A stretch of 64,000 nt of DNA from contig JAWMAR010000314.1 in assembly GCA_036785375.1 (NCBI GenBank), positions 1,550,001-1,614,000 of the forward strand. The letters are read 5' to 3'. Position 1 is the stretch's first letter. Each line of letters opens with the position of its first letter. Origin of the DNA: Leucoraja ocellata (Eukaryota). The translations under genes were made by a program, and so were the position numbers. Below are positions 12,907-46,945 of the stretch, piece after piece. Under the pieces are notes generated by a model. The model saw only the letters and a program-made list of their open reading frames with translations. It did not search any database and was not told the origin of the DNA.

Positions 12907-13748
12907 TTCAAGTTCAAGTTCAAGTTACATTTATTGTCACATACGCCAATTGGTGCAGTGAAATTTGAGTTACCATGCAACCACACAAATAAAATAAAAT
13001 GATCACAACACGATAGAATTTAACATGAACATCCACCACAATGGAATCAACGTTCCCACTGTGAGGGAAGGCAATAGAGTTCAGTCATCTTCCTCGTTGT
13101 TCACCCGTGGTCGGGGCCTTTGAGCCCTCCACAGTCGCCGCTATGGACGGTCCGATGTACAGGCCCTCCCGCCGGGATGATCGAAGCACCAGTGTCGGAA
13201 CGCAAGAACACTCTCAGCAGCTTGGAGTTTCCGAATCGGCCGCTTCTTACCGGAGACCGCGGCTTCCGAAGTCCACAGGCCGAGCTGGACGGAGCTCCGA
13301 CACTGGCGACCTCGACAAAGATCCCAGGCACCGCGATGTTAGGGTCAGCGCCGCCCGCAGCTGGAAGCTCCGCAAACCACAGCTCCACGGTGTGAAAGTC
13401 GGCAGGCCCTCCGGAGCTCTAACACGGCGATCCCCGGTAAGGCATCGCCCGCTTCACGATGAAATTCAGTGCTGTGCTGCTGCTGAAGCTCCGGCCGATC
13501 TCCGGCACGAAAGTCCGCGCCAATCCAGATGGTAGGCCGCGAGGGGAGGGGGGGCGAAGATGCGACTCGGAGAATAGACGCATCCTCGACCTGGTAGTGA
13601 CTGGGAAACAGTTTCCCCTCTACCCCCACCCCCCCACATAAAAAAGACAAAGACCTCCAAAGACATACTTTTTGACACTAAAAATAACAAAAAGGGTGAA
13701 AGGACAGACAGCTGCTGGCGAGGCTGCCACACTAGATGGCGCCACCGC
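12907..13748 (-). mobile_element. CpG-rich non-autonomous composite retroposon, Rex-like tail (copy A)
   Basis: Minus 3' end GTGACAATAAATGTAAC(TTGAAC)n; body shares CACTGTGAGGGAAGGCA, CACCCGnGGTCGGGGCC and AAAGGGTGAAAGGAC with 34558-35421. Confidence 0.75.
13728..13745 (+). promoter_or_regulatory. CTCF-like motif near the 5' end of retroposon copy A
   Basis: CACACTAGATGGCGCCAC resembles the core CCACYAGRKGGCRC. Confidence 0.4.
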
Positions 13749-13851
13749 TCGAGACTTGCAGGGGGTAGTGAATGCAGTTTAGTTCACTGTGCAAACCCGC
13801 CTCCCCTTCCCTTCGGGAAAACAGCCAATATAATCAAGGTCCACTAGCATC

Positions 13852-14029
13852 CCTGGATAGAAGGAATGGGTGACGTTCCGGGTGAGACCCTTCTTCAGAT
13901 TGAAGAAGGGTCTCGACCCAAAATATCACCCATTCCTTCTATCCACGCATGCTGCCTGTCCCGCTGAGATACTCCAGCATTTTGTGTCTATCTTTGGTGT
14001 AAACCAGCATCTGTAGTTCCTTCCTACAC
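13852..14029. mobile_element. Penelope-derived fold-back insertion inside a Rex 3' fragment
   Basis: CCCTTCTTCAGA|TTGAAGAAGGG inversion centre; ~22-bp TSD ATAATCAAGG(T/A)CCACT(A/C)GCA(T/C)C at 13830-13851 and 14030-14051. Confidence 0.8.
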
Positions 14030-14660
14030 ATAATCAAGGACCACTCGCACCTCAGTCATTCTTCACCCTTCTATTCGGCAGAAGGTGCAAAAGCTTGAAA
14101 ACGTGTACCACCATATTCAGGAACAACTTCCCCACTGTTATCAGAATATTGAACGGATCTCTCATAATCTAGCCCTGTCCCACTGCACTAGTTCATTCAT
14201 GTGCTCTCCCGAGTTAAAAAAAAAATCAAACTCGTGGTAAGTACGTAGAATGAACGTAGCGGGTACGTCGGAGCTCGGGAACGTCTCTTAGTGGCTCGTA
14301 ACGCAGTAAGCTCGGAAAGACTCGTGAAGATTTTTCAACATGTTGAAGAATGTCCACGAGAGCCCCGAGTGCCTACGAGCGGACAGTACCGTAAATCTCC
14401 GAGTTCGAATCAGGGGAAACTCGGGAGAACTCTTTGAATGAACTCGTACAGTGAGACAGGGCTTTAAGGGTGTATTCCCGATCTCCCAACCTACCTTGTT
14501 GCGGCCTTGGCACTTTTTAAATCTTCAACTTCTTTGTGGATGTAACACTATATTCTTCACTGGGTAATTTTCTATTTGTACTTCCCATTGTTCTTGTGTG
14601 GCTTGATCGCACTCATGCAAGGTATGAATCAACTGGAGAGCATGTAAAACATAGTCCTGA
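14030..14660 (+). mobile_element. Rex-Babar LINE 3' fragment interrupted by a MITE
   Basis: IIKDHSH..GRRCKSLKTCTTIFRNNF-like remnant, continuing into 3' UTR after 14465. Confidence 0.6.
14171..14464. mobile_element. Harbinger/PIF-like MITE, family B
   Basis: TIRs AGCCCTGTCCCACTG..GTTCATTCA / TGAATGAACTCGTACAGTGAGACAGGGCTT followed by TAA; same family as 53528-53838 in opposite orientation. Confidence 0.8.
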
Positions 14661-15129
14661 AGTAAACAAACATCTCGGTGTCAAACAATTGGCGAATAAG
14701 CACAGAGACATGTGGCAGAAAATAGACTTGATTCACGTTGCAAGTGGGGGCTTTGGGCACCACGTTCCACAAATGATATCCTCGCCCTTTGGCGGTTCCC
14801 ACGGCAACCAAGGCATCAACAACACTGGAAATTCAACTTTCATTATTCTTCCCTGAGAGTAAATAGCGCCTGAAAAGCATAAACTGTCAGAGTAAAATCA
14901 CCTCTTGTCAGCCGCAAGGTGATTAATAATGCAGCTTCAGCAACATAAAATGTCCTGCGTTATTTACAGAGCATGATTACAAAAATTGACAATGCATTTG
15001 GGATATCAGGACAGGAAACAAAAAATTGATCAAAGACTTGAAGGAGAATCGTAAAGAAGGAGGAGAGCTTTACAGAACAAATTGCACTGAGTGACCTAAG
15101 ACACGGCAGCTCACAGCAGAGCAGTTACG

Positions 15130-15380
15130 TGTTGGAACCAACTGCAGATGCTGGTTTGTACTGAAGATAGACACAAAATGCTGCAGTAACTCAGAGGTAA
15201 GGCAGCATCTCTGGATAGAAGGAATGCGTGACGCTTCTGTATTTCCTTATCACTGTCTGCTTTGATCTGTCGTTTTCACACCTTACCTTTCCATATCTCG
15301 AGACTGAAACGCCACCCATTCCTGCTCCCCAGAGATGCTGTCTGTCCCGCTGTGTTACTCCAGCATTTTGAGTGTAGCTT
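15130..15380. mobile_element. Penelope-derived fold-back insertion
   Basis: Inverted pLTR arms AACTGCAGATGCTGG..AGAAGGAATG / CATTCC..AGAGATGCTG..TTACTCCAGCATTTTG. Confidence 0.7.
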
Positions 15381-15706
15381 CACCAGGACATAGCCTGAGA
15401 TAATGTTTCGGGTCAGAACTCCTCCTCAGAGGTAACTTTTCAGATCCAAGCCTCCCTTCCCAATTCTGATAAAGAGTCTCAGTTGTGAAACATCAAACAC
15501 TATAATGTTCCTCTCAACAGATACTGCCTGACCTGCTGTGCATTTTCAGCACTTTCTGTTTTTATTTCAGATTGCCAGCATCCGTATTTTTTTTATTTTC
15601 ATGTCTCCTGGCTTAGTTGGCTGTCAAATATTTTTGGTTGTACTGAATATTTCTGACATTCAGAAACATTAAAAAAGCTATTGAAGCATTTTGAATCTGT
15701 GGGAAA

Positions 15707-15853
15707 NNNNNNNNNNNNNNNNNNNNNNNNNNNNNNNNNNNNNNNNNNNNNNNNNNNNNNNNNNNNNNNNNNNNNNNNNNNNNNNNNNNNNNNNNNNNNN
15801 NNNNNNNNNNNNNNNNNNNNNNNNNNNNNNNNNNNNNNNNNNNNNNNNNNNNN
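15707..15853. other. Assembly gap
   Basis: Run of N. Confidence 1.
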
Positions 15854-16169
15854 CCATCCGACCGGCTGCCGTCCGGCTGCCTTTCTGCCTTTTGATTCGT
15901 TGACGGCTGTTCCTTCCTATCAGCTTCCAACACACTGCAATACAAAGTTGCAAGACAGGAACACTCTGAACTTTTCACTGCTGCAGCAGGCAGGGAGGAG
16001 CAATCGGAATTGTTTTTAAATCCACTGCTGAGGGAGGCAGGGGAGTGCTGGAATCTTACATTTGGGAACGGGTTCAGTTCCGTTGGAGGAGACGGATGCA
16101 TGGTGGAATATTGGGTTGGGGGATCACACCATTGGGGGAGCAGACCCAATGGGTCTGCACTTGGTCTAG
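15854..16169 (+). mobile_element. Non-autonomous Helitron, family H2, 3' part
   Basis: Ends GCAGACCC-AAT-GGGTCTGC ACTTGGTCTAG|T; closely similar to 22345-23091 in reverse orientation. Confidence 0.85.
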
Positions 16170-16229
16170 TATCTTTTAACGAGGACAAAAACAATTAAAA
16201 CATTGGAATAAATTCAAACATTGAAACAG

Positions 16230-16785
16230 ATCTAAAGACCCTCAGTCCGGCTTGGCCTACGTAACCTCCCGGTTGACAAAAACTTTAAATCCCCTTCCCC
16301 GCTCCAGCACTGACCTGTCTGTCCTGGGCCTCCTCCACTGTCAGAGTGAGGCCCAAAGCAAATTGGAGGAACAGCATCTCATATTTCGCTTGGGCAGCTT
16401 ACACCCCAGTGATATGAATATTGATTTCTCTACCTTCAAGTAACCCTGACATCCCATCTCTCTCCGTCTCTCCCCCACCCTTGTCGTCATACTAGTTTCA
16501 CTGCTGTCCTGTTGAGTTTCATCTGAGTTTCATCCTGATAAGTTATCTGTATAACTCGTTTTCAACTTGCACACAGCTATCAATGGCCCGTTTCATTTAT
16601 CATCGATTCTTTTTTGCATATCTTTCATTCATTAGTTCTATATCTCTCTCTGTCACATCCATATCTCTCGTTTCCCTTTCCCCTGACTCTCAGTCTGAAG
16701 AAGGGTCTCGACATGAAACATAACCTATTCCTTTTCTCCAAAGATGCTGCCTGACCCTCAGAGTAATTCCAAGTTGTTGTGTCTA
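16230..16785 (+). mobile_element. Penelope-like (Neptune-type) 3' fragment
   Basis: TDLSVLGLLHCQSEAQSKLEEQHLIFRLGSLHPSDMNIDFSTFK*, then pLTR with degenerate CTGAAGAAGGGTCTCGAC motif. Confidence 0.85.
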
Positions 16786-18080
16786 AAGACGCCATCACAT
16801 GGTCATCATTCTCCATCGATGAGATGAACAGAGAAGGTCTCGGTGTCCCAAGGTCTAATCCAATGCTGGCCATTCCAATGAATCTCCCATCCATTATAAT
16901 GCAGGGACTGCAATTGTGCTCTTGTGCTGTATTCAACGAGGAATCCCATGTCAAAGTGTAAGCAAAGAAATTCCGGCAAGCAGCTGTCAGCATGTTTGGG
17001 ACACACTTGCATCCGCACACACGTGTTGTAATTCCGGTCTTCCTGGTGCATGCACGGGGCTGCAGCAGAAGTTACATGCAGAACTGCTGCCATTTCCCTA
17101 CAGAGACCAGGCCGGCATTTTCCTACTTTAAATCAATCTTACTGCTGGCTGAGAACAGTGTGGGTAGTGTCTCTCTCAGTCTGGCTGCTGCTTTATTCCT
17201 GCATCGTATTCCAAAACCAACAGTGGAGAACGATCGAGAACCGGGGTTAACGGAGGAGCTGTCTGAATGGGCTCTGCTTTACAAGTGCACCTGAGACATG
17301 TTGCTCTCAGATGACATCCAGCAAGAATCCTAACAAGCTGTAGATTATTAAACACTGGTGGTAGGACTGGGGTTGGCAGACACAGGGACTAGTACTCAAG
17401 GTTTCTGTATATCTCTTGAATAACGTTTAATAGGCAGCTGGCAATTGCTTGGGGAAATATTATCTCTGGGACCAAGTGAGGCATATGACCATGAGGTAGA
17501 GACAGGCTGTTCGGCCTCTTGACCCTGCCCCACCATTCACAAGGAGCATCACAGGCCTAACGTTCGTCATGTTCCCGCCCGATCTTTAACCCTCGATTCC
17601 ATCACTGATTAAAAGTCTATCCATCACAGCTTTGAAGATATTCAAGCATTTTATCTTGGTAGATCTCTGAAACAAGGAACACCATAAACTCACACCCTTT
17701 GACAGATGAAATGCTTCCTCATCTCAGTATTGAGAGTGAGCTCCTTAGTCTGAGGCCAGGCAGCCTGGTCCCACAACAACCTCCTAGCATGTAGCATGCC
17801 ATGCCCTAGCAATCTTATGATCAATTCTCGTTCTTCTAAACTCGAAGAATCAAACCCTTCAAACTCTTCAATCTTTCATAGAATCATAGTCATAGAGTGA
17901 TACAGTGTTGAAACAGGCCCTTCGGCCCAACTTGCCCACACCGGCTGACATGTCCCAGCTACACTAGTTCCCTTCATACCTGGGTTCAAAATGAAACATC
18001 CCTGAATTGCCTCCAATATATTTCCTTAAATAAGGAGATCAAAATCATTCTTTGGATGTGATTCAAGTGCTCATCTAGAC

Positions 18081-18378
18081 AGGGTGGCATGGTGGCGCAG
18101 CGGTAGAGTTGCTGCTTCACTGCACCAGAGACCTGGGTTCAATCCTAACTACGGGTGCTGTCTGTACGATGTATGTTCTCCCTATGACCACATGGGTTTT
18201 CTCCATTTGCTCCAATTTCTTCCCATCTTCCAAAAGACATCAGGTTTGTAGGCTAATTGACTTCTGTAAATTGACCCTAGTGTGTAGGATAGTATTAGTG
18301 TACATGGTGATCATGGTTGGCATGGACTCAGTGGGCCGAAGGGCCTGTTTCTACACTGTATATCTAAAATCTAAAAAT
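18081..18378 (+). mobile_element. HE1-type V-SINE
   Basis: GGGTGGCATGGTGGCGCAGCGGTAGAG head, GGTTCAATCC B-box, GGGCCGAAGGGCCTGTTT 3' end. Confidence 0.9.
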
Positions 18379-19224
18379 CTTGGAAACCAAGTGCTGGAGT
18401 AACATAGCATATACGGTACTTGGAGGGTCTCCTGTTTACCTTTGTTATTGGATGTGTACAACATGAATGTGTGGGCATGCAGGCATCTTAGCAAGGCCAC
18501 TCAAGTCCATGTAAAGACAGTCTTTGTACATGTGATGCCAGCCTTCATAACCATCAAGGCACTCAACAAGATTTACTGATGAGAATTTAACGCCAAGCTG
18601 CATAACAATCAAGATTTATGGCAAGATGTTCAACATCTTCATCCAAAGAGGTAGGTTTAGAGCAACTTTATTGGAGGAAAGAAGTGTAGAGGAATTCAGG
18701 GAGAGGCTTCCAAGACCAGGCATGTCAATGTTGGACGGAGTTGTTAATGTCAGGGATTCTCAGAACTGACAACGAGAGAATAGCTAACATGGCAGCGTTA
18801 AAATCAAGATAAAATCAATATCATGGAATGATTTAGAGGGATAAGGTCATAAGGTCATAGATGACAGGAGCAGAATTAGGCCATTCGGCCCATCAAGTCT
18901 ACTCCACCATTGAATCTTAGCTGATCTATCTCTCCCTCCTTCTCCTACCTTCTCTCCATAACCCTAACACACGAACTAATCAAGAATCTATCTATCTCTG
19001 TCTTAAATAGGTGGGACTACCGCAGATGGGCAACTTGTTCATCTTGTTCAGCTTGGGCATGCCTTGCCGAAGGGCCTGTTTCCATGCTGTATAACTCTAT
19101 GTCTGCCTACGCATAAAATCCCAGCTGAGATCTAGTGCAGGTCAGGTGGCATCAGAAGTACTGAGGTGGTAATGGGAACCGACATGAGTAGACAAAGTTT
19201 TGGTTTGGAAGAGCTCATCGCCAC

Positions 19225-19425
19225 AGAGGGCCGTGGAGGCCAAGTCAGTGGATATGTGTAAGGCAGAGATAGACAGATTCTTGACTAGAACGGGTGTCAA
19301 GGGCTTTGGGGGAAAGGCAGAAAAATGGGATTAGTTGGCAGAGATCAGCCATGATTGAATGGCGGAGTAGACTCGATGGGCCGAATGGCCTAATTCCACT
19401 CCTATAACGTGAACTGGTGAACTGA
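19225..19425 (+). mobile_element. CR1-type LINE 3' end
   Basis: AVEAKSVDMCKAEIDRFL..GVKGFGGKA; GATCAGCCATGATTGAATGG; GTGAACT tail. Confidence 0.8.
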
Positions 19426-24264: not shown

Positions 24265-25851
24265 CTAAAACTGCACACAATACTCCAGGTGTGGTCTCAC
24301 TAGGGCCCTATACAACTGCAGAAGGACTTCTTTGCTTCTATACTCAACTCCTCTTGTTATGAAGGCCAACATGCCATTTGTTTTCTTCACTTCCCGACTA
24401 ACCTGGATTTCACTCAGTTCCTCCACCTCATTTGACCCCCGGTCCCCTGCTATTTCCGGCAGATTATTTATGTCTTCCTTAGTGAAGACAGAACCAAAGT
24501 AATTATTCAATTGGTCCTTGTTCCCCATGATCAATTCACCTGTTTCTGACTGCAAGGGACCTACATTTGTTTTAACTAACCTTTTTCTCTTCACATATCT
24601 ACAAAAACATTTGCAGTCAGTTTTTATGTTCCCTGCCAGTTTTCTTTCATAATCTATTTTTCCTTTCCGAATTAAGCCTTTTGTCCTCCTCTGCTGGACT
24701 CTGAATTTCTCCCAGTCCTCTGGTAGGCTGCTTTTTCTGGCTAATTTGTATGCTTCATCTTTTGTTTTGATACTATCCCTGATTTCCCTTGTTATCCACG
24801 CATGCACTACCTTTCCGGCTTTACTCTTTTGCCAAACTGGGATGAACAATCGTTGTAGCTCATGCATGCAGTCTTTAAATGCCTTCCATTGCATATCCAC
24901 CGTCAACCCTTTAAGAATCACTTGCCAGTCTATCTTGGCCAATTCACGTCTCATACCCTCAAAGTTACCTTTCTTTAAGTTCAGGACCCTTGTTTCTGAA
25001 TTAACAATGTCACTCTCCATCCTAATGAAGAACTCAACCATATTATGGTCACTCTTGCCCAAGGGGCCACGCACAACAAGACTGCTAACTAACACTTCCT
25101 CATTATTCAATACCCAGTCTAGAATAGCCAGCTCTCTCGTTGGTTCCTCTACATGTTGGTTTAGAAAACTATCCCGCATACATTCCAAGAAATCCTCTTC
25201 CTCAGCACCCTTGCCAATTTGATTCACCCAATCTATATGTAGATTTAAGTCACCCATTATAACTGTTTTACCTTTGTTGCACGCATTTCTAATTTCCTGT
25301 TTGATGCCATCCCCAACTCCACTACTACAGTTAGGTGGCCTGTACACAACTCCCACTAGCATTTTCTGCCCCTTAGTGTTTCGCCTCTCTACCCATATCG
25401 ATTCCACATCCTCCAAGCTAATGTCCTTCCTTTCCATTGCGTTAATCTTCTTTCTAATCAGCAACGCTACCCCATCTCCTTTCCCTTTCTGTCTATCCCT
25501 CCTGAATATTGAATATCCCTGGATGTTCAGCTCCCAGCCTTGGTCACCCTGGAGCCATGTCTCCGTGATCCCAACTATATCATTGTCATTAATAGCTATC
25601 TGCACATTCAACTCATCCACCTTATTATGAATGCTCCTTCCATTGAGACACAAAGCCTTCAGGCTTGTTTTTACAACACTCTTACCTCTTATACAATTAT
25701 GGTGAAAAGTGGCCCTTTTTGATTTTTGCCCTGGATTTTGCCCTGGATTTGTCTGCCTGCCACTTTTACTTTTCACCTTGCTACCTATTGCTTCTACCCT
25801 CATTTTACACCCCTCTGTCTCTCCGCTCAAACCCTTTCCCTTTAACTCCAT
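24265..25851 (-). pseudogene. CR1 ORF2 remnant: APE endonuclease fused in frame to the post-RT region
   Basis: LCLNGRSI, GITETWL, VVYRPP, IMGDLN, ILDWVL, GKSDH; jumps from VSREV to KKTNGMLAFITRGVEYRSKEVLLQLYRALVRPHLEYCVQF; no (Y/F)ADD. Confidence 0.9.
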
Positions 25852-25887
25852 CCTTGACTATCCCATTTGACACCCCACCCCCCTTAT

Positions 25888-26812
25888 TCAGTTTAAAACC
25901 ACCCGTGTAGCAGTGGCAAACCTGCCTGCCAGAATGCTGGTCCCCCACCTGTTAAGATGCAATCCGTCCCTTTTGTACAGTTCCTCCTTACTCCAAAACA
26001 GATCCCAGTGATCTAAGAATCTAAATCCCTGCCCCGTGCACCAGATCCTCAGCCACACGTTCAGGTCCCGTATATCCCTGTTCCTGCTCTCGCCAGCACG
26101 AGGAACTGGAAGCAAACCGGAGATAACAACCCTGGAGGTCCTGGTTTTCAGCATTTTTCCGAGCTCTCTGAAGTCACGCTGCAGAATATTCATCCCCTTC
26201 TATCCGACATCGTTTGTGCCGACATGCACTACCACTTCCGGCTGTTCACCTTCGCCCTTGTGGATTTTCTGCACTGTCCATGACGTCCTGGATCCTGACA
26301 CCAGGAAGGCAGCACACCATCCTCGAATCCCGTCTGTTGCTGCAGAAACCCCTGTCCGTACCTCTCACAATGGAGTCTCCCACTATAATGGCGTTGCCTG
26401 ACGTTGGCCTCTTTGGTTTTGGCTCAACAGCCCTTTTTTCTTCGCAAGCCAGTCCGCCGCTCGGTGTAATAACGTCTTCTGACCTGACAGCTTCTAAGTG
26501 GGTGAACCTGTTCACAAGAGGTACAACACCCGGGGACGTTTGCATTCCATGCTTCCCTCCCTTGTTCACCGTCACCTACCTTCTCTCTTCCAGTACCTTA
26601 GGTTTAACAATCTTACTGTAGGACTTGTCGAGGAATGACTCAGTTTCTCGGACGAACCCGAGGTCATCCACTTGCTTCTCCAGTTCCCCAACACGGTCCT
26701 TCAGGAGCTCTACCTGGATGCACTTCCTACATTTGTAGCAGCCAGAGGCACCAGCAATGTCCTTGACCTCCCATATACTGCAAGCATCACACTGAATCAG
26801 CTTGCTTGACAT
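25888..26812 (-). pseudogene. CR1 ORF1 (Zn finger/leucine zipper plus SGNH-type esterase), frameshifted and deleted
   Basis: CDACSIW..YKCRKC..VGELEKQV; IVGDSIVRG..CLPGVRIQDV; VVISGLLP..FLDHWDLFW..DGLHLN, split over three ORFs. Confidence 0.88.
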
Positions 26813-28608: not shown

Positions 28609-28612
28609 AACC

Positions 28613-29035
28613 TCAGAGCCGGATTTAGATGAAGAGAGGCCCTAAGCTATTTCACTTGTGATCCCCCCCCCCCCCCCCTCCCAATCACCCATCCCCACGA
28701 CTAGAGGACCATGACTACCTGACAGTGACAGTGTGACACGTTTAGATCCTACTGTATGTTGTCATTAAACAGTTGGTTTTAAAATACATATTGGATTCAC
28801 CGCGGAGCGGGCGATGCGTTACCTGGATCGCCGTTTGAAGCTCTGGAGTGTTGGGCCTGCTGCTTCAACATCATGGAGCTGCGGTTTGCGGAGCTCCCCG
28901 CCTCAGGCTGCGCTGATTTAAACATCGTGGAGCCCTGGGATCCCTTTGCCGAGGGCCTCCAGCGTGAATCTCCGCCCTGCTCAGCCTGCGGACTGCGGGT
29001 GGTGCGGGAGGGGAAGGAAGAATTGACCATGGAAT
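28613..29035 (+). mobile_element. hAT-like non-autonomous left end followed by a CpG-rich module
   Basis: Begins CAGAGCCGGATTTAG..AGGCCCTAAGCT; 28800-29000 is similar to the reverse complement of 13280-13450; no right TIR or TSD found. Confidence 0.45.
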
Positions 29036-30255
29036 TGCGGAGAGAGCGGTCTTTGCGGAAAGCAGACGGGTGGGGGGGGGGAGATGGGAAGATGTGGCGA
29101 GTGGTGGGGTCACGTTGGAGGTGGCGGAAAATGACGGAAGACTATTTGTTGTATGTGACGGCTAGTGGGGTGAAAGGTGAGGACTAGGGGGACTCTGCCC
29201 TTGTTGCGAGTGGAGGGATGGGGAGAGAGAGCAGTGTTACGGGGTATGGAAGAGACCCTGGTGAGAGCCTCATCCATAGTAGGGGTGGGGAACCCCCGTT
29301 CCTTGAAGAAGGAGGACATTTCCGATGCCCTCGTGTGAAACACCTCATCCTGGGAGCAGATGCGGTGTAGACGGAGGAATTGGGAGTAGGGGATGGAGTC
29401 CTTACAGGAAGCAGGCTGGGAAGAAGAGTAGTCTAGATAGCCATGGGAGTCAGTGGGTTTATAGTGGATGTCGGTCAGAAGTCTATCACCTGCGATGGAG
29501 ATAGTGAGGTCAAGAAATGGTAGGGAAGTGGCGGAAATGGTCCAGGTGTATTTGAGTACCGGATGGAAGTTAGTGGTGAAGCGGATGAAGTCAGTCAGTG
29601 GTGTGTGGGTGCAAGAGGTAGCACCAAAGCAGTCGTTGATGTGACGAAGGTAGAGGTCGGGGATGGGGCCCTGGTACGTATTGAACAAGGATTGTTCGAC
29701 GTACCCGACAAATACCTGGCGTAGCTGGCGCCCATGCGTGTGCCCATAGCTAGGCCTTGTATTTGGAGGAAATGGGAGGAGTCAAACGAGAAGTTATTGA
29801 GGGTAAGGGCCAGCTCCGCTAGGCGGAGGAGAGTATCAGTGGACGGGTATAGGTGGCTCCTCTGGTCGAGGAAGAACCGGAGGGCTTTGAGACCATCCTG
29901 GTGGGGGATGGAGGTATAGAGTGACTGGACGTCCATGGTGAAGATGAGGGGATGGTGGCCTAGACAATGGAATGCCTGGAGACGACGGAGAGTGTCTGAG
30001 GTTTCTTGAACATAGGTAGGGAGGGATTTAACCAAGGGGGGTAGGATGGAGTCAAGGTATGTGGAAATAAGTTCGGTGGGGCACGAACAGGCAGAGTCAA
30101 TGGGTCTATTGGGACAGTCAGGTTTGTGGATTTTGGGGAGAAGGTAAAATTGGGCCGTGCGGGGCTGTGGAACGATGAGGTTGGAGGCTCGGGTGGTCAG
30201 GGCCTGGGAGTTGATGAAGTTGGTGATGGTGCTGGAGATAGTGGTGGTGTGGGTG
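29035..30255 (-). mobile_element. Penelope-like element (Neptune-type) reverse transcriptase fragment, frameshifted
   Basis: IFTMDVQSLYTSIPHQDG, NNFSFD..QIQGLAMGTRMG, YLRHINDCF (degraded RYIDD), LPFLDL, YKPTD..SIPYSQFLRLHRICS. Confidence 0.92.
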
Positions 30256-30684
30256 GGGAAGAGCAGGGGTCACATAGTTAGAGGGGGATGGGGAAGACTC
30301 AGTGGAACTGCCACTGAGGTTAACAAGGCTGGGCAGACTAGCACTAGGACCCAGTGGAGTCAAACCTAGGAGAGTGTTTCCCTTTGCTCAGTTAGGTAAC
30401 ACATGGCCCACAAAATCCCAGATCTGATCCATGGTCCTTCTTGAAGGCACAGTTGACTATGGACCAAGTGAATTGGATTAGTATAGATAGTATTCATGGT
30501 TAGCATGGACACAATGGGCCAAAGGGCCTGTTTCTGTGCTGTGTGATTCAATAACCCTATGACGTTATGGAAGGTACCGTGGGGTGATGTAATTAGTTTC
30601 AGCACTCAGGAGAGAAGTCAGCTGAGCTTCCTGCTGCTGAACCCTAACCACCCGTCCGTCCATAGCTGGAAGCAAACTTCACTT

Positions 30685-32762: not shown

Positions 32763-33480
32763 CAGGGGTGGAAATCACTGTCAAAACATGGGGGGGCACA
32801 ATTTCTTGGTGGCCACACGCTCACGCACACACACACACACACACGCGCGAGGCTTCGGCCGTGGGCCCTGTGGACGGTAACCTGGTTGGTGACGGCCCGA
32901 ATCGTGGGGCTTGAATCGGCCCGTTCGCGGGACCTTTCATCGCCTGGAGCGGTTTAAAACCGGCCGCCAGATCTTCCATCGCCCGGCGAGGGCTTCAACA
33001 TCGGGAGCCTCGATCGCCTCGGCGCAGCAATATGGCCGCAGGGCGGTGGAAGATCCCGCGGCCAATTTAAGCCGCGCCGGGCGATGAAAGGTCCCACGAA
33101 CGGGCCGATTCAATCTCCGCTCTATGATCTTTGCTCCACCAGGTCGTTTCCCTCCTCCAATCACCGCGCTCTATCCTCTGTCCCACCCCCTACTTCCGCC
33201 TCCGACCGACACCTCCCTCCTCCAATCATCATGCTGAATCATGTCCCATTCTCCCCCCCACTACCTGCTGGCCGACGTCTCTCTCGTCCAATCGGCGCCC
33301 TTGATCATCAGTCCCACCCCCACTGTCTCGCGGAAAGTGGAGATTTTTAATCGATTTTTTTCACCGAATTATAAATCCGATTACAAAACATGGAGGGGAT
33401 TGGCCCCCACCTCTCAAAACATGGAGGGGGCGTGTGTCCCCGACCCCCCCCCCCCCCCCCCCCCCGGATTTTGGTCCTTG
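32763..33480. mobile_element. hAT-like non-autonomous DNA transposon
   Basis: Degenerate TIRs CAGGGGTGGAAATC / GATTTTGGTCCTTG, subterminal TCAAAACATGG, 8-bp TSD CCATCATC / CCACCATC; related to 63169-63413. Confidence 0.75.
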
Positions 33481-34557: not shown

Positions 34558-35421
34558 ATAATAATAATAATAATAATAATATTTATTTATATAGCACTTT
34601 TCAACAAAACCAGTATTTGAACCAAAGTGCTTTACAGAGATTGATTAAATTAATTGAACAGATCAATGCAATAAATCCATACAAATCAAAAAAAAGAGAA
34701 AAAAGAGAAAAAGAAAAAAGACACAGAAACAGTACACTATAGAAATCAACATGAAACGTCCCCCCACAGCAGAATTCACTGTGAGGGAAGGCACCAAAAA
34801 ATATCCAGTTCTCCCCTCATAGTCCACCCGAGGTCGGGGCCTATATCTGGCCTCCTCAGCCAGCCCGGTATCTTCAGGCCCTCCTGCCGTGAAGCTGGAC
34901 CATCGGCGTCGGTGAACGTCCATCAGCGGCCAGGACTGAAGCGGCCGCTTCCCCCCCGAAGACTGCAACGACCAAAGTTCACAGGCCGCGCCGGCCGAAC
35001 CCCCGACACTGGCGATCTCGGATCCCAGGCTCCGCGGTGCTGTCGACGGTCACAGTGCCCCGGAGATTACCGCAAGGCGACCCGGTAAGGCATCGCACGC
35101 TCCTTGTAGATGTCCCAGCATCTACACCGCCGTCGAAGCTGCAGTCCCGGCAGGAAACGCCGCTCCAGCGCTGCTCCAGTTTGACTAGGCCGCACAGAGA
35201 GGACGAAGATGCGGTTCGGAGAAAAACCGCATCTCCGACCAGGTAGAACTGGGGTTAAAATAGTTTCCCCCTTCCCCTCCCCCACCCACCACATAAAAGA
35301 AGTCCTCCAATAAACATTTCATACGAACAGGACTAAAAATAAAAATAAAAAAGGGTGAAAGGACGGACAGCAGGAGGAGCGGCCATACACAACGGCGCAT
35401 CACCCCCGCTGTCCGCCATCT
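34558..35421 (-). mobile_element. CpG-rich non-autonomous composite retroposon, L2-like tail (copy B)
   Basis: Minus 5' AAGATGGCGG; body homologous to copy A; 3' end GTAAAGCACTTTG..AAAAGTGCTATATAAATAAAT(ATT)n. Confidence 0.75.
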
Positions 35422-35424
35422 TGA

Positions 35425-37228
35425 ATGAACAAACTTGCACATTCTTACAATGAACATCACCAGCAATTTGTCCTTGGCCCAGCAACATGAAAGATATGGC
35501 CATGAAAGCACGCCAACTCCCTACTTCTTTAGAAGGCTTATGAAGTTCGACATGTTGTGGTGTGGCGGCACCTTTCGGCAGCGGCTCGACTACAGTACGT
35601 CTGTATTTTTTTTAATTTTTGTCTCGTTCAATGTATGTCTTGACTCTATTTTTTATTATTTTTCTTTAACTGTGTATATGTGGGTGGTGGGGGGGGGGGG
35701 GTGGGGGGGTGGGGGAAACCGTTAGTTTCTTCCCTGCACGGGGACCCGACTTTTTCCCTGTTGGGTCTCCGGTGTCATTGGGCCCAACATCGTGGAGCCG
35801 GTGGCGGCCTCCAGCCGGGACCAACCTGAGGGCTCCAGTCGCAGAGCCTGCGGACCTGACATGGCGGAGCTGGCCGTCCTCGGAGCAGGAGGAGCTGTGG
35901 TGGTGCGTGGCTGTGACCAAACTTTGGAGCTTTGGAGGCTCCGGCCGCAGGCCCGGTGGACGGTAACATCGGGAGCTCCAGGTCCCTGGTGGGTGACCGC
36001 TTTTTGGAGCTCCCACAACGGCAACTTCTCCCGCTGGAATCGCGGGGTTTAAAGGACTCGGAGCGGGGCCTAACATCACCAGGCGTGGCTTAAACGGCCA
36101 CAGGACTTACCATTGCCCGCCGGGGGCTTTAACATCGTGAGCCCCAGTCGCCTCGATGCTGCAGTTGGACTGCTGGACCACGGGAGAAGAACAAAGGGAA
36201 GAGATAAGACTTTTGCTTTCCATCACATTGCGGAGATGTTGGAGATTCACTGTGATGGATGTTTGTGTAAACTGTGTTAAGTGTGGGTCTTGGGTTTTTT
36301 TGTAATGTAAGATTGTAGAAAATGCAATGTCGTTCAAACCAAGCTGTTTGAATGACAATAAAAGGCATTCTATTCTACTCTATTCTATGTCCCCAACAAC
36401 TCTCACCAACTTCTACAGTGCACCATAGAAAGCATTTTATCGGAATGCGTCACAGACTGGTTTGGGAACAGCTCCATCCAAGCCCACATGAAATTGCAGA
36501 GTTGTAGACGTAGCCCAGGCCATAACACAAGCCAGCCTCGTGGCAGTGATGTCTCGCAGGTCGACCCATGGTCAATGAGATCATGGAGGACCGCTGTGAG
36601 GGAGGTGGGGGGAGAACAATGGACAATAGGGGGGGTGGGGGGTAAAGGACAATGGGGGCCCGACGTGGGGGGTGGGGGGGAGGAAGAACAAAAGGAGGAG
36701 CCGGTGTGTTGTAATTTTGTCAGTGCCGGAGGTGGCTGCTATTTGTGTACATTATTGGGTATGCAAGCAAAGAATCTCACTGTATTCCATTCCATCCATT
36801 CCATTCCCTTCCCTTGACTGCATCTACACCTCTCGCTGCCTCAGCAAGGCCACCAGCATAATCAAGGACCAGTCTCACCCCGCTCACTCCTTCTTCTCCC
36901 CTCTCCCATCAGGCAAGAGGTACAGGCATTTGTAAACACATACCTCCAGATTCAAAACAGTTTCTTCCCAGCTGTTCATCAGGCAATCGAATGGTCCTCT
37001 CATCAGCTAGAGTGGGGTCCTGACCACCCATCAACCTACCTCATTGGAGGCCTTTGAACCTCTTGATCAGACTTCAATGTTATATCGTGCACTAAACGTT
37101 GTGGACTTTAGCCTTTATCTGTGCAGTGTAGATGACTTGATCGTATTTGTGTGCAGTGTTTTCCTTGACTGGATAGCATGCAAAGAAAAGCTTTTGACTG
37201 TACCTTGTTAAACGTGACAATAATAAAC
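35425..37228 (+). mobile_element. Old Rex-Babar 3' segment hosting two nested insertions (35556-36388 and ~36540-36805)
   Basis: YFFRRLMKFDM | SPTTLTNFY..IESILSECVTDWFGNSS.. | PSLDCIYTSRCLSKATSIIKDQSHP..LPSGKRYR, then 3' UTR ending GTGACAATAATAAAC. Confidence 0.8.
35556..36388 (+). mobile_element. CpG-rich non-autonomous composite retroposon (copy C)
   Basis: Repeated AACATCG(T/G)GGAGC-like modules, CCATCACA..TGTGATGG hairpin, tail ATGACAATAAAAGGC(ATTCT)n; ATGT on both flanks. Confidence 0.78.
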
Positions 37229-38472: not shown

Positions 38473-38527
38473 TGGGTGAAGGCAATGGTTCAAGGTTTTA
38501 GATAAACACTAAATCTAGAACAGTGAC

Positions 38528-39025: not shown

Positions 39026-39185
39026 CATTGCACAGATCAAGCCCAGTGGAAAGTCTGGACACGGGTATTTTGAGGCTGCAGAGCCATCATTTCCCCTGCA
39101 CCCTACAATGATTCATCGTTTTATGTACTGGCAGCTGCTCAGTACACTGCCTTTACCGGTGGATCCTGTCTGTGTATCCTAAAAA

Positions 39186-41421: not shown

Positions 41422-41697
41422 AACATAGAAACATAGAAACATAGAAATTAGGTGCAGGAGTAGGCCATTCGGCCCTTCGAGCCTGCACCGCCATTCAATA
41501 TGATCATGGCTGATCATCCAACTCAGTATCCCGTACCTGCCTTCTCTCCATACCCCCTGATCCCCTTAGCCACAAGGGCCACATCTAACTCCCTCTTAAA
41601 TATAGCCAATGAACTGGCCTCAACTATCCTCTGTGGCAGAGAGTTCCAGAGATTCACCACTCTCTGTGTGAAAAAAGTGAAAGAAGTTCTTCTCATC
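41422..41697 (-). mobile_element. CR1-type LINE 3' fragment
   Basis: (CATAGAAA)n on the plus strand; near-identical reverse complement of 38215-38472. Confidence 0.92.
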
Positions 41698-41865
41698 TAT
41701 AAGAAGATAAGCAGCATATCAGCAATTAACTTCTCGAACCTGCAACTCTTTGGGATGTGGGAGGAACATTTGAGCAGCCGGAGGAAATCCACTTGATCAC
41801 AGGGGGAGCATAGAAACTCCACACGGACAGAGGACAGGAGTGAAACTAGGTGTCAGGCACTGTGA

Positions 41866-42059
41866 AGATAGGCACAAAATGCTGGAGTAACTCAGCGGGA
41901 CAGACAGCATCTCTGGAGAGAAGGAATGGGTGATGTTTTGGATCGACCCAAAACGTCACCAATTCCTTCTCTCCTGAGATGCTGCCTGTCCCGCTGAGTT
42001 ACTCCAGCATTTTGTGTCTACCTTCAATTTAAACAAGCATCTGCAGTTCTTTCCTACTT
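41866..42059. mobile_element. Penelope-derived fold-back insertion
   Basis: ~75-bp arms centred on GGATCGACCC (hammerhead helix II position); perfect 11-bp TSD AGGCACTGTGA at 41855-41865 and 42060-42070. Confidence 0.88.
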
Positions 42060-42252
42060 AGGCACTGTGAGGTAGCTGTTCTAAACTGATGATTGTTTTA
42101 TTTTTTATAATGTATTACATTATCTATGAGGACTGTGTTTACAAGTCCGTTATGCTTCTGCAAGTCAGAATTTCATCGTTCCGTTGAGCGTCCATATGAC
42201 AATGAAACATTCTTGACTCTTGAATCAAATCTTGAAGAAATATCTGTAATTC

Positions 42253-42575
42253 AGTTTAGTTTAGTTTAGTTTAGTTTAGTTTAGTGATACAGTGTGGAAA
42301 CAGGCCCTTCAACCTACCGACTCCGCGGCGACCAGCGACCCCCGCATGTTACCACTACCCTACACACGCTACGGACAATTTTACATTTATACCGAGCCGA
42401 TTAACACACAAACCTGTACGTCTATGGAGTGTGGGAGGAAAGCGAAGATCTTGGAGAAAACCCACGCAGGTCACGGGGAGAATGTACAAACTCCGTACAG
42501 ACAAGTGCCCGTAGTCAGGAATGTATCCGGGTCTCTAGCGTTGTAAGGCAGTAACTCTAACGCTATGCCACCGCC
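42253..42575 (-). mobile_element. HE1-type V-SINE
   Basis: (TTTAG)n tail, V-domain, head. Confidence 0.88.
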
Positions 42576-43965
42576 CCGCTCCGTGAAATAAGGTGTTTAG
42601 TACAAATATGATGGTGAAGTATACATAACCGAAGACTCAGTGGCTTCAGATGACAGACACTTAAATAAAAGGATAATCATAACAAGTGTGGAATGGTTTC
42701 AGCATGGAACGAGGCCTTTCAGACCCTCACGCCCATGATGGTTCTATGCTAACTCAATGCGGCGGTCCCACTCCCTCACCGTCCCCCACACTGTGCAAAT
42801 TCACCCGTTCAGATACTTTCCATCTCCCTCTCGGTCCCGACCATTGAATCTGCCGCCTCTGATTCTCCCGCAGTATGATCCAGACCCACGCCAGGAGCTC
42901 TGGAGGTAGGTGTTCCTCTGGTTGCCCAATGGGATGAGTCCAGTATTGAGCTGTGACTGAGTGGTGTGGGGGTCTTCCCCCTTCTGCTGGGTCTCCACAG
43001 GCTCCTAGTGTGCAGGTGACCCGTGTAAACTGGGGAGTTGATGGGAGTGTGGGGAAGACGAGGGAATGTGGAATTAGAGTAGGAGCAGTGTAAACAGATG
43101 GTTGATGGTCAATGCTGTACATCGAGCTGGACAATCCAATGACCGGCGGAGACCAAATAATTCCCACTTTCTATCCCGTTACTCCCATTGCCATGTCCCA
43201 AAACCTCAAGTGCCCATCCCCGAACCCCTAATGCTCATTTCTTGGCCCCAAATGTCCATGACTCTTGCTACGCATGCTTCAACACACTGACCCTAATTGT
43301 CATCCTCAGACCTCTCTGACCACCCTCGAATCCCTACACCCAACACAACCCGTCCCACACTCTCACTGGCCCTTCCTTGGCCACTGAATGAATAAATTAT
43401 ACTTTATTGTCGCATGTGACAAGTCACAGTGAGATTCTTTGCTTTGTGTACCCAATGTATGCAAAGAGTCACCACATAAAGGGCGCTGAGACTGCTTCAC
43501 AACCCTTGTTATTGGGGTAAAATTGTACAGACTTTAATCCCGCCATGACCCAGACTCGATCCTCACCTCCGGTGCTGTCTGTATAGAGATACACATCATC
43601 CTGAGACCACATGGGCTTCCCCAACTACTCCATCTCCCGTCCACCCCATATACCGAAGATGTTCAGGTAGGTTAACTAGCAACCTTAAATTGCCCAGAGT
43701 GTGGGTGGGTGACAAGACAATTGAGCAGCTGGAGAGTATATATACAAGAGACAATACAGTATGGTCGATGGGATTGCCCTGAGACCAAGCACAGACTCAT
43801 TGGGCTGAATGGTCTCATTTTATGTAGTCTGAAATCAATTACTCCTAACGTGTCGGCACCTTTTGATGGCATCTTATCAACCGGTCTTTCAAGATATTTG
43901 TGCCGAATGGCAAAATGTTTTTGCAGAAGATATTTTTGCAGAACGGCAAATATTTTTGCAGAGTA

Positions 43966-44275
43966 GGCGGCACCGTGACGCAGCGGTAGAGTTGCTGCCT
44001 TACAGCGCTTTCAGTGCCAGAGCCCTGGGTTCGATCCCAAATACAGGTGTTGTCTGTACGGAGTTTTACGTTATCCCCGTGACCTGCGTGGGTTTTCGCC
44101 GAGATCTTCAGCTTCCTCCCACCCTGCAAAGATGCACAGGTTTGTAGGTTAATTGGCTTGGTAAATGTAAAAATTGGCCCTAGTGGGAGTGGGATAGTGT
44201 TAATGTGCGGGGATCGCTGGCCTGTGCGGACCCGGTGGGCTGACTGGCCTGTTTCTGCGCTGTATCTCTAAACTA
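43966..44275 (+). mobile_element. HE1-type V-SINE
   Basis: GGCGGCACCGTGACGCAGCGGTAGAG head, GGTTCGATCC, GCTGTATCTCTAAACTAA tail. Confidence 0.9.
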
Positions 44276-44292
44276 ATTCCTTTCTGTTCTGC

Positions 44293-44677
44293 ACTCCCGG
44301 TGGCTCAGCACTTCAACTCCCCCTCCCATTCCCAATCCGACCTCTCTGTCATGGGTCTCCTCCATTGCCAGAGTGCGCAATACCGGATATTGGAGGAACA
44401 GCACCTCATATTCCGCCTGGATTGCTTGCGTCCGGATGGCATGAACGTTGAATTCTCCCAGTTTTGCTATCCCTTGCTGTCTCCTCCCCTTCCTTAACCC
44501 TCGAGCTGTCTCCTCCCATCCCCCCGCCCTCGGGCTCCTCCTCCTCCCTTTTTCCTTCCTTCTCCCCCCCACCCCCCATCAGTCTGAAGAAGGGTTTCGA
44601 CCCGAAACGTCGCCTATTTCCTTCGCTCCATAGATGCTGCTGCACCCGCTGAGTTTCTCCAGCATTTTTGTCTACTT
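44293..44677 (+). mobile_element. Penelope-like (Neptune-type) 3' fragment
   Basis: VAQHFNSPSHSQSDLSVMGLLHCQS..LEEQHLIFRL..PDGMNVEFS plus pLTR; same family as 440-857. Confidence 0.88.
44584..44611 (+). ncRNA. Minimal hammerhead-ribozyme motif, best-preserved copy
   Basis: CTGAAGA-A-GGGT-TTCG-ACCC-GAAACGTC: core, Watson-Crick helix II with UUCG loop, ACGU palindrome, GUC triplet. Confidence 0.6.
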
Positions 44678-45247
44678 CCTTTCTGTACTGTGTAGGTGTA
44701 TTGTCAAAGTTTAATTAGAGGAAAGCTGTCCCAGAGATGTAATAAAGAAGGTAATAAAAATGAATCCATTCAAAGCCAGGAGCTCGCTCAAGTTGACCAG
44801 TGTGGAGATAATTAAGTGCTCATGTTGGTCGATGAGATACTTTCAGAGAGCTTAAAGTCCAAGTGCACACAGCTTCCTCCCTCAATAATAGCTTGGGGAA
44901 TATTGGTTACTTTGTGCAGAGCTGTGTGTTTAGAGTATAGATTACCATTATTCTGATTGGAGTGTGCATTTGTGAAGGAGCACAAGCTAGGCCTGTCTAG
45001 AGTCTGAAATTAGATTTATGGGGCTCGGAGTCCAATCCCACTTCAGAAACCTGTCTGTACAAACTATGCATTTCCTCTGCAGTTCCCCAGTTGATCGGCG
45101 ATGTGCCTGGCTCAATGCTATCACACCTGCCTCTGAGTCACAGTGCTGAAGGCTTGTCAGAAAGATAAGCACAAATTCTAGAGAGAGAGCTTGAACATGA
45201 ATCCTAATGTCCGCCGCCTCTTTGCTAGATGTACAGAGGTGAAATCA

Positions 45248-45490
45248 AAGATAGACACAAAAAGCTGGAGTAACTCAGCGGGCCGGACAGCATCTCTGGA
45301 GTTAAGGAAGAGGTGACGTTTCTGGTCGAGACCCTTCTTCAGACTGACTGAGAGTCATGGGGAAAGGGAAACAAGAGATGTAGATGGTGATATAGCGAGA
45401 TATATAGAACAAATGAGTGAAAGATATGCAAAAAAGTAATGATGATAAAGGAAATGGGCCAAAGACTCAGACAACTGGGCCCATTGGCAA
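45248..45490 (-). mobile_element. Penelope pLTR fragment
   Basis: Minus-strand CAGTCTGAAGAAGGGTCTCGACCAGAAACGTCACC and flanking pLTR sequence. Confidence 0.8.
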
Positions 45491-45992
45491 ATAGCCACCT
45501 GGTTGACAGATTGGTCCCAACAGGATGCCACGGAATCAGAACTGGGCTCATTTACCCACAATTTATATTAATGACTTTTTGAAAGGACAGAGTGCAACAT
45601 AGCAAGTGAACAGCTGATGGAGATCGGGAGAGGAGGAGAGCTGCATGGAGGGTCCCAGGAACCTGCAGAGACACGTGGAGAGGTCAAGCAGGCAGGCAAG
45701 ATGCTGGCAGCTGGTGTAGATAATTGGGTGGGGTGGATAAGGGGAAGGGGAGGTAATTCACCTTGACAGGAAGAAATGAAAAAAGTCATATTTTTTAATA
45801 GGTGGCAAATTAATAAATTTTGGAGTTCAGAGGGGTTTGGGCATATTGGTTCCTGAGAGGCAGCCATTAAAGATGCAGATACAGTGAATAACCAGAAGGC
45901 AAAGTTGTGTCTATTGGAAGAGTGTGGAGCGTAAAATCTTTTACTGAGGTAGAACAGACTTTGGCAGGACATCACCGGAAGCACAATTGTGA

Positions 45993-46312
45993 TTAGTTTA
46001 GTTTGTTTTAGTTTAGTTTAGTTTAGTTGAGAGATGCAGTGTCGAAACAGGCCCTTTGGCCCCCTGAGTCCACGCCAACCAACAAACACCCCTACACTGT
46101 TCTATCATGCACACTAGGGACAATTTACAACAGCCAATTAGCCTACAAACCTCTGCACGTCTATGGGATGTGGGAAGAAACCGGAGGACCCAGAGAATAC
46201 TCACACCATCACAGGGATAACATGCAAACTCCATGCAGACCGCACCCATAGTCAGGAGCGAACCTGGGTCTCTGGCGCAGTTAGGCAGCAGCTCTACCGC
46301 TGCGCCACTGTG
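45993..46312 (-). mobile_element. HE1-type V-SINE
   Basis: (TTTAG)n tail, V-domain, head. Confidence 0.85.
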
Positions 46313-46356
46313 CTGGCCAGTAGAGTTGGTGCCGGATTTGATCAGGCGCTGTCTAA

Positions 46357-46945
46357 ATAGAAGAATAGAACAGAATGCCTTTTAATGTCATTCAAACAGC
46401 TTGGTTTGAACGAAATTGCATTTTCTACAATCTTACATTACAAAAACACCCCAGACCCACACTTAACACAATTTACACAAACATCCATCACAGTGAATCT
46501 CCAACAACTCCTCACTGTGATGGAAGGCAAAAGTCTTATCTCTTCCCTTTGTTCTTCTCCCGCGGTCCAGCAGTCCAACTGCAGCGTCGAGGTGACTGGG
46601 GCTCACGATGTTAAAGCCCCCGGTGGGCGATGGTAAGTCCCGCGGCCGTTAAGCCGCGCCGGGCGATGTTAGGCCCCGCTGCGAGTCCTTTAAACCCCGC
46701 GATTCCAGCTGGAGAAGTTGCCGTTGCGGGAGCTCCGAAAAGCAGTCACCCACCGGGGACCTGCGAGTTCCCGATGTTACCATCCACCGGGCCTGCGGCT
46801 GGAGCTGCTGAAGCTCCGAAGTCGTGTCACGGCCGCGTGCCACCACAGCTCTCCACGCTCCGAAGACGGCAGCTCCACGATGTCAGGTCCGCAGGCTCCG
46901 CGACTGGAGCCCTCAGGTTGGCCCTGGCCGGATGCCGCCGCCGTC
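46357..46945 (-). mobile_element. CpG-rich composite retroposon, 5'-truncated (copy D)
   Basis: Closely similar to the reverse complement of 35800-36388; 13-bp stem at 46484-46496 / 46512-46524. Confidence 0.8.

Follow-up and report, generated by a model that had tools for sequence, protein, structure and literature searches.

The question raised by this locus is how gene-less retroposons with a common body come to carry the tails of different LINEs. In the 64-kb stretch of Leucoraja ocellata DNA analysed here (the window), four copies, A to D, had been put forward in an earlier note as members of one modular, CpG-rich group. All four were found at the places given, and the blocks and tails quoted for them were present, with the exception of the tail of D, which ends ...GACATTAAAAGG and not, as read earlier, ...GACAATAAAAGG. 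Two fragments had been overlooked, as had the presence of the body of A and B in C and D.

12907..13750, minus strand: copy A, full-length, R2-type Rex tail with (TTGAAC)n (sequence, genome matches)
28791..29006, plus strand: extra A-type internal fragment, overlooked earlier (sequence comparison)
32849..33113, strand not given: C-related fragment with an inverted duplication, overlooked earlier (sequence comparison)
34558..35424, minus strand: copy B, full-length, young, L2-type tail with (ATT)n (sequence, genome matches)
35556..36388, plus strand: copy C, full-length, R1-type Rex tail with (ATTCT)n; its head resembles the 5' end of another, second Rex family (sequence, genome matches)
46357..46946, minus strand: copy D, 5'-truncated member of the C family (sequence; 89.7% to C)
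50054..51950, plus strand: autonomous Rex1 LINE (RT domain), 5'-truncated, R1-type tail, one candidate partner type

Members and abundance of the superfamily

A and B could be aligned at 62.6% over 751 columns (E 5e-47), with a local score of 477 against 68±8 in 40 shuffles. The scores were 278 for A and C (68±9) and 161 for B and C (72±12), each against 40 shuffles, and 962 for C and D at 89.7% identity over 594 nt. Searches of the genome with A, B and C each gave 40 of 40 scored matches, mostly near full length, and the possibility that the body-tail junction of B was single-copy was thus refuted. The A family (27 copies) has a mean pairwise identity of 83%, and the B family (29 copies) a mean identity of 99.3%. 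The superfamily comprises three multi-copy families of non-coding retroposons, represented by A, B and C/D, that are homologous to one another.

The composition and non-coding nature of the elements were as described in the earlier note. Observed/expected CpG was 0.71-0.94 in the elements versus 0.48 for the window. A conserved ORF in the body was rejected, as no ATG ORF was common to A, B and C, and many of the indels between their families were non-triplet. A small-RNA head (tRNA, 5S or 7SL) was likewise rejected, since ARAGORN gave no tRNA in the whole window and no Rfam match fell inside the elements at six loci (E<=1). Five Rfam matches were obtained, all within a flanking palindrome outside the elements.

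The body contains two predicted hairpins, H1 after a G-tract and H2 at the TCACAGTG box.

13556..13586, minus strand: H1 of A, after the G-tract (sequence; covariation over 23 family representatives)
13030..13074, minus strand: H2 of A, with the TCACAGTG box (sequence)
35205..35237, minus strand: H1 of B (covariation set)
34759..34794, minus strand: H2 of B; the tail swaps fall immediately 3' of its box
35740..35770, plus strand: H1 of C (sequence)
36214..36261, plus strand: H2 of C (sequence)

Among the 23 family representatives, 88.9% of H1 cells were paired, compared with 45-49% in slid controls, and double changes occupied 28 cells versus 11.3 in shuffles, a value reached by none of 500 shuffles; these figures count sequences and not events. 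In H2, double changes were confined to one pair. Both predicted hairpins are conserved, with covariation strong for H1.

A 20-mer from H2 had 19,407 exact matches in the genome (reversed control, 0). In an arbitrary sample of 599,600 bp, 29 profile matches covered 11,226 bp, at least two of the matches being non-members, and the reversed control again gave none. The superfamily amounts roughly to 10^5 pieces and about 1.9% of the 600-kb sample, which corresponds to some 2% of the genome. Family copies start at a fixed 5' position, are truncated at random from that end, finish in a microsatellite at the 3' end and have short duplications; for B, target duplications of at least 5 nt were seen in 14 of 30 copies versus 3.7 in shuffles. 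B- and C-like pieces occurred in contigs from sequencing runs of four organisms, one of which could be the very organism that was assembled, and this suggests that the superfamily is present in related species.

Heads, body and transcription

The first 30 nt or so of the B and C clades resemble the 5' end of the partner LINE.

35378..35424, minus strand: head of B (AAGATGGC, then GCGCCGTTGTGT), L2-like in that full-length L2 elements match it over their first ~30 nt (z 7-9.6)

Heads of B and of the T2 and T5 families matched the L2 5' end with z 4.8-9.6, those of the C clade matched a second Rex family (z 4.8-7.7), and A-type heads too had a resemblance to the L2 head (z 4-5). The L2-tailed family of a further body lineage, T4, has a head that is not L2-like (z 1.2-1.6), and a match between head and partner is therefore not required. 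The YY1-type start reported for B was borne out, with the refinement that AAGATGGCG is also the context of a LINE start codon. In L1, a YY1 site (GCCATCTT) directs initiation (PMC10620060).

For the remainder of the body, the possibility that it was the 5' UTR of an autonomous LINE may hold for the 5' module only. The 5' ends of young full-length LINEs of three families, Rex1 (L238, L258, L262), the second Rex family (L399-L420) and L2 (L278-L299), gave no profile match beyond the head and T-rich tract, and the G-tract and H1 were absent from them; the body as their 5' UTR was rejected. In L348, an old near-full-length Rex inserted as a single unit into the tail of another Rex, the front is formed by the superfamily's 5' module (E 5e-8; z up to 20), with the N-terminal motif of Rex immediately after it. 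As judged from this one copy, an old Rex lineage may have provided, from its front, the 5' third of the body; a second Rex of this type was not present in about 2.0 Mb, and the 5' module precedes only 1 of 149 endonuclease-bearing places.

These results bear on the strongest of the rival explanations, that the elements are plain internal-deletion derivatives of a long-UTR autonomous Rex-type LINE, which supplied the entire body, with only the tails exchanged later. L348 speaks for such an origin, as does the retention in B- and C-clade heads of the opening codons of the ORF of the partner LINE, and the alternative is partly true because the 5' third may stem from an old Rex front. However, the 3' UTR of L348 lacks H2, which followed none of 222 LINE C-termini, so that the body as a LINE 3' UTR was also rejected, and L348, represented by one copy, could be one template-switch chimera. 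None of 202 elements with the 5' module (a partly redundant set) ran into an endonuclease domain. The only body found to run into an ORF was L356, which proved to be a nested Rex insertion. The middle and H2, about 500 nt, were in none of the LINE UTRs searched and were traced to no LINE, and we regard a plain deletion origin as unlikely. The reading that we prefer, and hold with reasonable confidence as a whole, is that of bipartite, ORF-less, LINE-like retroposons with SINE-style tail swapping and Rex1 and L2 partners. In their formation, an old Rex lineage would have contributed its 5' end (head, T-tract, G-tract and H1), which was joined to the GC-rich middle and H2.

Such elements would be transcribed by Pol II from their own 5' end, with initiation at the YY1-type head, as we infer. 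RNA reads from a related species covered B and C, but their peaks adjoined internal A-tracts on the antisense strand, so that they are silent on the elements' own transcription; no start pile-up was listed among them. Alternatively, the elements could have no promoter of their own and owe their copying to read-through transcripts of the host, with the 5' end set by the hairpins or head in the role of processing signals. The resemblance of the reads to host pre-mRNA (both strands, internal A-priming) and a pyrimidine tract ending in AG near the start of B are in keeping with this, but the fixed 5' start at a YY1-type motif common to full-length L2 and Rex, the high CpG content and the lack of a ribozyme match in Rfam make it improbable. 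Poorer still are the prospects of an ordinary Pol III SINE superfamily with a small-RNA head that escaped recognition and a conserved central domain. A conserved body with exchanged tails is indeed the hallmark of HCD SINE superfamilies (PMC11481361, PMC5786205), but the absence of tRNA and Rfam matches, a length of 800-900 nt and heads that match LINE 5' ends have already largely refuted this explanation. Moreover, three to four runs of 5-7 T occur within the first 150 nt of A, B and C, and Pol III is therefore unlikely.

Swapping of Rex1-type and L2-type tails

The tails of the superfamily match autonomous Rex1 and L2 elements of the same genome, as had been sought.

12907..12968, minus strand: Rex-type tail stem of A, of the type at the 3' end of Rex copy L360
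34584..34636, minus strand: L2-type 3' stem-loop of B; the outer stem is shared with autonomous L2, the inner loop is not

In L2, ORF2 sits directly upstream of the outer stem seen in the B-type tail, and a Rex ORF lies upstream of tail types R1 (the window element and L239), R2 (L360), R3 (L354; weak, E 2e-5) and R4 (L348). For R5, no partner was found among the LINEs in 1.7 Mb searched. The inner tail loop of B is unlike that of both L2 families found in the genome, and its exact partner was therefore not found among them. L2 ORF2 binds its own 3' stem-loop, and zebrafish L2 proteins are strict in reading the tail loop (PMC4176376). It is likely that Rex1 and L2 tails let gene-less elements be copied by those two kinds of retrotransposon; the LINE ORF2 would bind the tail stem-loop and mobilise the element in trans, as the pattern of truncation, the duplications and the match of the tails indirectly suggest.

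The T4 lineage offered a view of tail exchange on one body. Among the first 30 of 4,147 matches to a lineage-specific 30-mer, bodies were 81-94% identical to an L2-tailed reference, and the tails were L2 in 8, R2 in 13, R5 in 6, other in 2 and interrupted in 1; three pairs had common flanks, leaving 7, 12, 6, 1 and 1, respectively, at independent loci. In a body-only tree of 39 rows, the L2 label took two changes in 200 of 200 bootstrap trees, and a single origin of L2-tailed bodies was rejected (AU p 4.7e-51). Tail exchange between Rex1 and L2 types across body lineages is thus shown at the level of sequence, in agreement with the interpretation in the earlier note, as are the common body with different LINE tails and the multi-copy junctions. 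Chance nested insertions as the source of the different tails are refuted, since, although such cases exist (L356, L026, L074), the B junction was kept in 40 of 40 matches at 98-100% identity and every tail type recurs on the T4 body at independent loci.

The segment 3' of H2 in the L2-tailed T4 family was 71% identical to that of the sibling family T2 (z 8.6), whereas it had no relation to the 3' UTR of the L2 LINE (z -0.4) or to the sister families with Rex tails (z 1.1-2.2). These comparisons show, for the sequences aligned, that the swap point lies just 3' of H2 and that the L2 tail of the T4 lineage came from a sibling without genes and not from a LINE. Exchange between LINE clades, as first proposed, stands, but at least one swap drew its tail from a sibling. 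Swaps could proceed by template switching during reverse transcription or by recombination at the conserved H2 box, and H1 and H2 might act at the RNA level, by stabilising the transcript, aiding its export or docking it to the LINE particle.

Significance and known systems

The superfamily would extend the ORF-less bipartite design to Rex1 and L2, with cross-clade tail exchange in the absence of any Pol III head, and its swaps are at a recent stage at which the crossover can be mapped. It could provide a natural series for asking which features (tail loop, head, H1, H2) a non-coding RNA must have to be copied by a stringent LINE. In annotations, some 10^5 CpG-rich pieces of promoter-like character have probably been classed as fragments of Rex1 or L2 or left as unknown. 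The B family, at 99% identity, should yield insertion markers for skates and rays. A joint reading of all these features, which we offer tentatively and at somewhat less than even confidence, is that these are structured, non-coding retroposons driven by Pol II, of a class not yet described, which make up about 2% of skate and ray genomes. Each would be a modular parasite, a two-hairpin RNA chassis with heads and tails from different LINE clades and sibling tail trade at a fixed crossover box. On the same tentative reading, H1 and H2 would form a general trans-mobilisation signal of a non-coding RNA competing for stringent LINE proteins, and the B family would still be active. A published description of such a family with Rex1/L2 partners was not found in the literature searched.

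Bipartite ORF-less non-autonomous LINEs include RIME/Ingi, NARTc/L1Tc, Bov-A and RTESINE with RTE, and Vingi and R2 derivatives, and a 2018 Repbase-wide survey limits their sources to four LINE clades, RTE, Ingi, Vingi and R2 (PMC5786205). The skate elements are similar in having no ORF, apparently LINE-derived 5' and 3' ends, and presumed Pol II transcription and trans-mobilisation. In contrast, their partners are Rex1 and L2, their middle and H2 lead to no LINE, and their tails move between LINE clades. Nor are two ends of one parent LINE their sole content, as the L2-tailed T4 family combines a non-L2 head with a tail of sibling origin.

With the HCD SINE superfamilies (CORE, V, Deu, Meta), as outlined in PMC11481361 and PMC5499810, they have in common one body, many families, exchanged tails and different LINE partners, as well as a 3' tail common to element and LINE. 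Unlike HCD SINEs, they are longer, carry no tRNA, 5S or 7SL head, have early T-runs incompatible with Pol III and possess a LINE-like 5' end. The origin of conserved SINE bodies was termed enigmatic in the 2018 survey (PMC5786205). Certain bird SINEs, described in PMC7245038 with reference to the AviRTE paper, have a single partner and carry, ahead of bipartite RTE sequence, heads that are rich in GC and of unknown origin; the skate elements likewise have a GC-rich 5' part of no small-RNA origin. The Rex1/L2 tails and many partners, however, set them apart from the bird elements.

SVA and LAVA are composite, CpG-rich, Pol II-type and non-coding, and SVA ends in poly(A) and uses the relaxed L1. 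Compared by description, the skate elements resemble both in being composite, CpG-rich, non-coding and, as inferred here, Pol II-type. Unlike SVA, instead of a poly(A) tail and dependence on L1, they have the stem-loop tails of stringent LINEs with microsatellite ends.

Retroposon copies and their genome-wide families

The four copies described in the earlier note were all found in place, together with further elements in the window.

12907..13750, minus strand: copy A
34558..35424, minus strand: copy B
35556..36388, plus strand: copy C
46357..46946, minus strand: copy D, a C element with truncated 5' end (89.7% identical to C)
28791-29006: further superfamily fragment
32849-33113: further superfamily fragment
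24265-26620: CR1 fragment (endonuclease, esterase-like ORF1), presumptive label by motifs
29110-30269: Penelope-like RT fragment, likewise labelled

A and B, said to share a non-coding body, aligned over 751 columns (62.6%, E 5e-47). C is a homologue of each, its local scores of 278 with A and 161 with B standing against shuffled means of ~70. CpG o/e was 0.71-0.94 in the elements against 0.48 for the whole window. The reported lack of a tRNA-like head was borne out, with no tRNA found in the window by ARAGORN and no Rfam match inside elements at six loci. A pyrimidine tract with terminal AG, splice-acceptor-like, lies near the 5' end of B (35340-35375) and recurs in several other families, C being without it. 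An inverted-end element (32780-33480), with similar pieces at the sampled loci L071 and L073, holds a C-related fragment as an inverted duplication.

When the 3.44 Gb genome of the animal, by its repeats probably a ray or skate, was searched, all 40 scored candidates matched for each of A, B and C (15,323, 4,238 and 11,158 candidates, respectively), mostly near full length, and the B body-tail junction is thus not a single-copy accident. Mean pairwise identity, in sets free of near-duplicate loci, was 83% for A (27 copies), 99.3% for B (29) and 88% for C (29). B copies share a common 5' start, the AAGATGGC motif, and a 3' end in (ATT)n; 14 of 30 carried flanking duplications of at least 5 nt, against 3.7 when shuffled (maximum 12 in 500 shuffles), and a tail-only search returned both full-length and 5'-truncated copies. 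A, B and C are genuine retroposon families. A 20-mer of the 3' box had 19,407 exact genome matches (reversed pattern, 0). A profile search of 599,600 arbitrarily chosen bases gave 29 matches, at least two of them LINE pieces and some of them split elements, covering 11,226 bases (1.9%; reversed control, 0), which scales to roughly 10^5 superfamily pieces in the genome. Clustering at 82% placed 175 elements of at least 550 nt, a sample biased towards A, B and C, in 32 clusters. The superfamily is real and abundant, and part of it is still active.

Tails and their exchange

Six tail types were seen, an L2 type and the types R1 to R5. LINE partners were named Rex1 and L2 from RT/endonuclease domains and from clade motifs, without a classifier. 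The expected match to autonomous Rex or L2 elements was obtained for L2, R1, R2 and R4, weakly for R3 (a Rex match upstream in L354), and a search for a partner of R5 in 1.7 Mb returned none. R1, the tail of C and D, is common to a Rex1 LINE of the window (50054..51950, plus strand) and to a second Rex family also ending in (ATTCT)n, R2 (copy A) is common to Rex copy L360, and R4 is the 3' end of Rex copy L348. Every matched pair had the same stem and a different loop, and the B loop matched neither the first nor the second of the autonomous L2 families found. Long open frames persist in numerous copies of the window's Rex1 family, ~50 with one and the same score, and the family is therefore very young.

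The gapped L2-type stem pattern had 6,480 genome matches; among the first 30, 11 had the autonomous L2 loop (five with a long ORF2 upstream), 18 had loops of body-bearing families (B, T2, T4 and a B variant) and one was a fragment, while a separate count gave 24 B-type among the first 100.

The claim that tails are exchanged between LINE clades was upheld by the lineage T4, for which a specific 30-mer had 4,147 genome matches. The first 30 copies, three pairs of which have common flanks, carried L2 (8), R2 (13), R5 (6) or other (2) tails, one being interrupted, on bodies 81-94% identical to the L2-tailed reference. In a tree of 39 bodies, head and tail excluded (4 of 43 representatives were dropped, having no anchor), the L2 tail was gained twice in 200/200 bootstrap trees, and an AU test rejected a single L2-tailed clade (p 4.7e-51); a smaller 27-row tree gave the same outcome. 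B, T2 and T5 grouped with A and the R4 families, and L2-tailed T4 fell within Rex-tailed T4. Swapping of tails between Rex1 and L2 types is thus demonstrated; the direction of older swaps is not fixed as the tree is unrooted. The L2-tailed T4 segment 3' of H2, the second of two hairpins of the body, matched T2 (71%, z 8.6) but not the L2 LINE (z -0.4) or its own sisters (z 1.1-2.2), and its tail therefore came from another gene-less family, with the crossover immediately 3' of H2. L391 and L392, a single duplicated locus in which a T4 body runs into another, longer 3' segment that ends in an R4-like tail, are an additional composite.

Heads, hairpins and the origin of the body

Full-length L2, Rex1 and second Rex elements all start A(A/G)ATGGC, the ATG of which opens the reading frame. 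Read on the opposite strand, this motif is the YY1 site described for L1 (PMC10620060). In L2 (L278, L282, L284) and second Rex copies (L399-L420) the frame opens within this terminal YY1-type motif, which would give almost leaderless mRNAs; the first 40 codons of the latter encode a hydrophobic stretch. Against the L2 start, heads of B, T2 and T5 scored z 4.8-9.6, A-type heads z 4-5 and L2-tailed T4 z 1.2-1.6, and five C-clade heads scored z 4.8-7.7 against the second Rex start. In further subfamilies (L125, L129, L138, L347, L352, L007) the head starts with an ETS-like (CCGGAAGTG) or CRE-like (TGACGTCA) motif in place of the YY1-type one.

The possibility that the body is the 5' UTR of an autonomous LINE failed for L2, Rex1 and the second Rex family, whose fronts did not match it past ~30 nt and the T-rich tract. 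The 5' third had a counterpart in one Rex copy. This copy, an old near-full-length Rex with R4-type tail (L348:5770-8925), inserted as a unit inside another Rex tail, has a front of head, T-tract, G-tract and a hairpin like H1, the first of the body, followed at once by the Rex N-terminal motif (profile E 5e-8; z up to 20). The module preceded 1 of 149 endonuclease-bearing places, namely L348, and this one copy suggests that the 5' third descended from a Rex front. H2 followed none of 222 LINE C-termini, and the middle of the body was matched to no LINE.

In H1, 88.9% of cells were paired (23 representatives; slid controls 45-49%), with double changes in 7 of 9 pairs and 28 cells against 11.3 shuffled (0/500), and in H2 98.2% (20 representatives), with a double change in one pair and one-sided changes in several, counts that overstate events as the rows are related. 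Their spread over distant families points to selection for pairing. The GC-rich middle between the hairpins (35796-36170, 13100-13470) holds several short ACATCG..GGAG copies, four in the C family, and looks as if assembled from degenerate repeats.

Transcription, mechanism and known systems

T-runs, which terminate Pol III, lie close to the element start and argue against Pol III transcription. RNA reads of a related species cover the element, with internal oligo-dT priming on the antisense strand, and showed no start pile-up; the suggested Pol II drive is inferred from anatomy. Transcription would start by Pol II at the LINE-type head, and the folded RNA would offer its 3' stem-loop to Rex1 or L2 ORF2, as shown for zebrafish L2 (PMC4176376). 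Insertion would follow by target-primed reverse transcription, and the tail might now and then be replaced near H2 by template switching or recombination, allowing a lineage to use whichever LINE is active. We consider this whole scheme probable.

The literature searched, outside subscription journals, Dfam and Repbase, held no description of the superfamily. For rays, sections of PMC13343379 give high Rex1 coverage and do not contain the term non-autonomous. PMC5786205 places SINE tail exchange on record and traces ORF-less bipartite elements to no LINE clades but RTE, Ingi, Vingi and R2. The superfamily works like such bipartite elements, although these are solely the two ends of one LINE and the superfamily is not. 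Its evolution resembles that of HCD SINE superfamilies (PMC5499810, PMC11481361), which are defined by a small-RNA head that it lacks.
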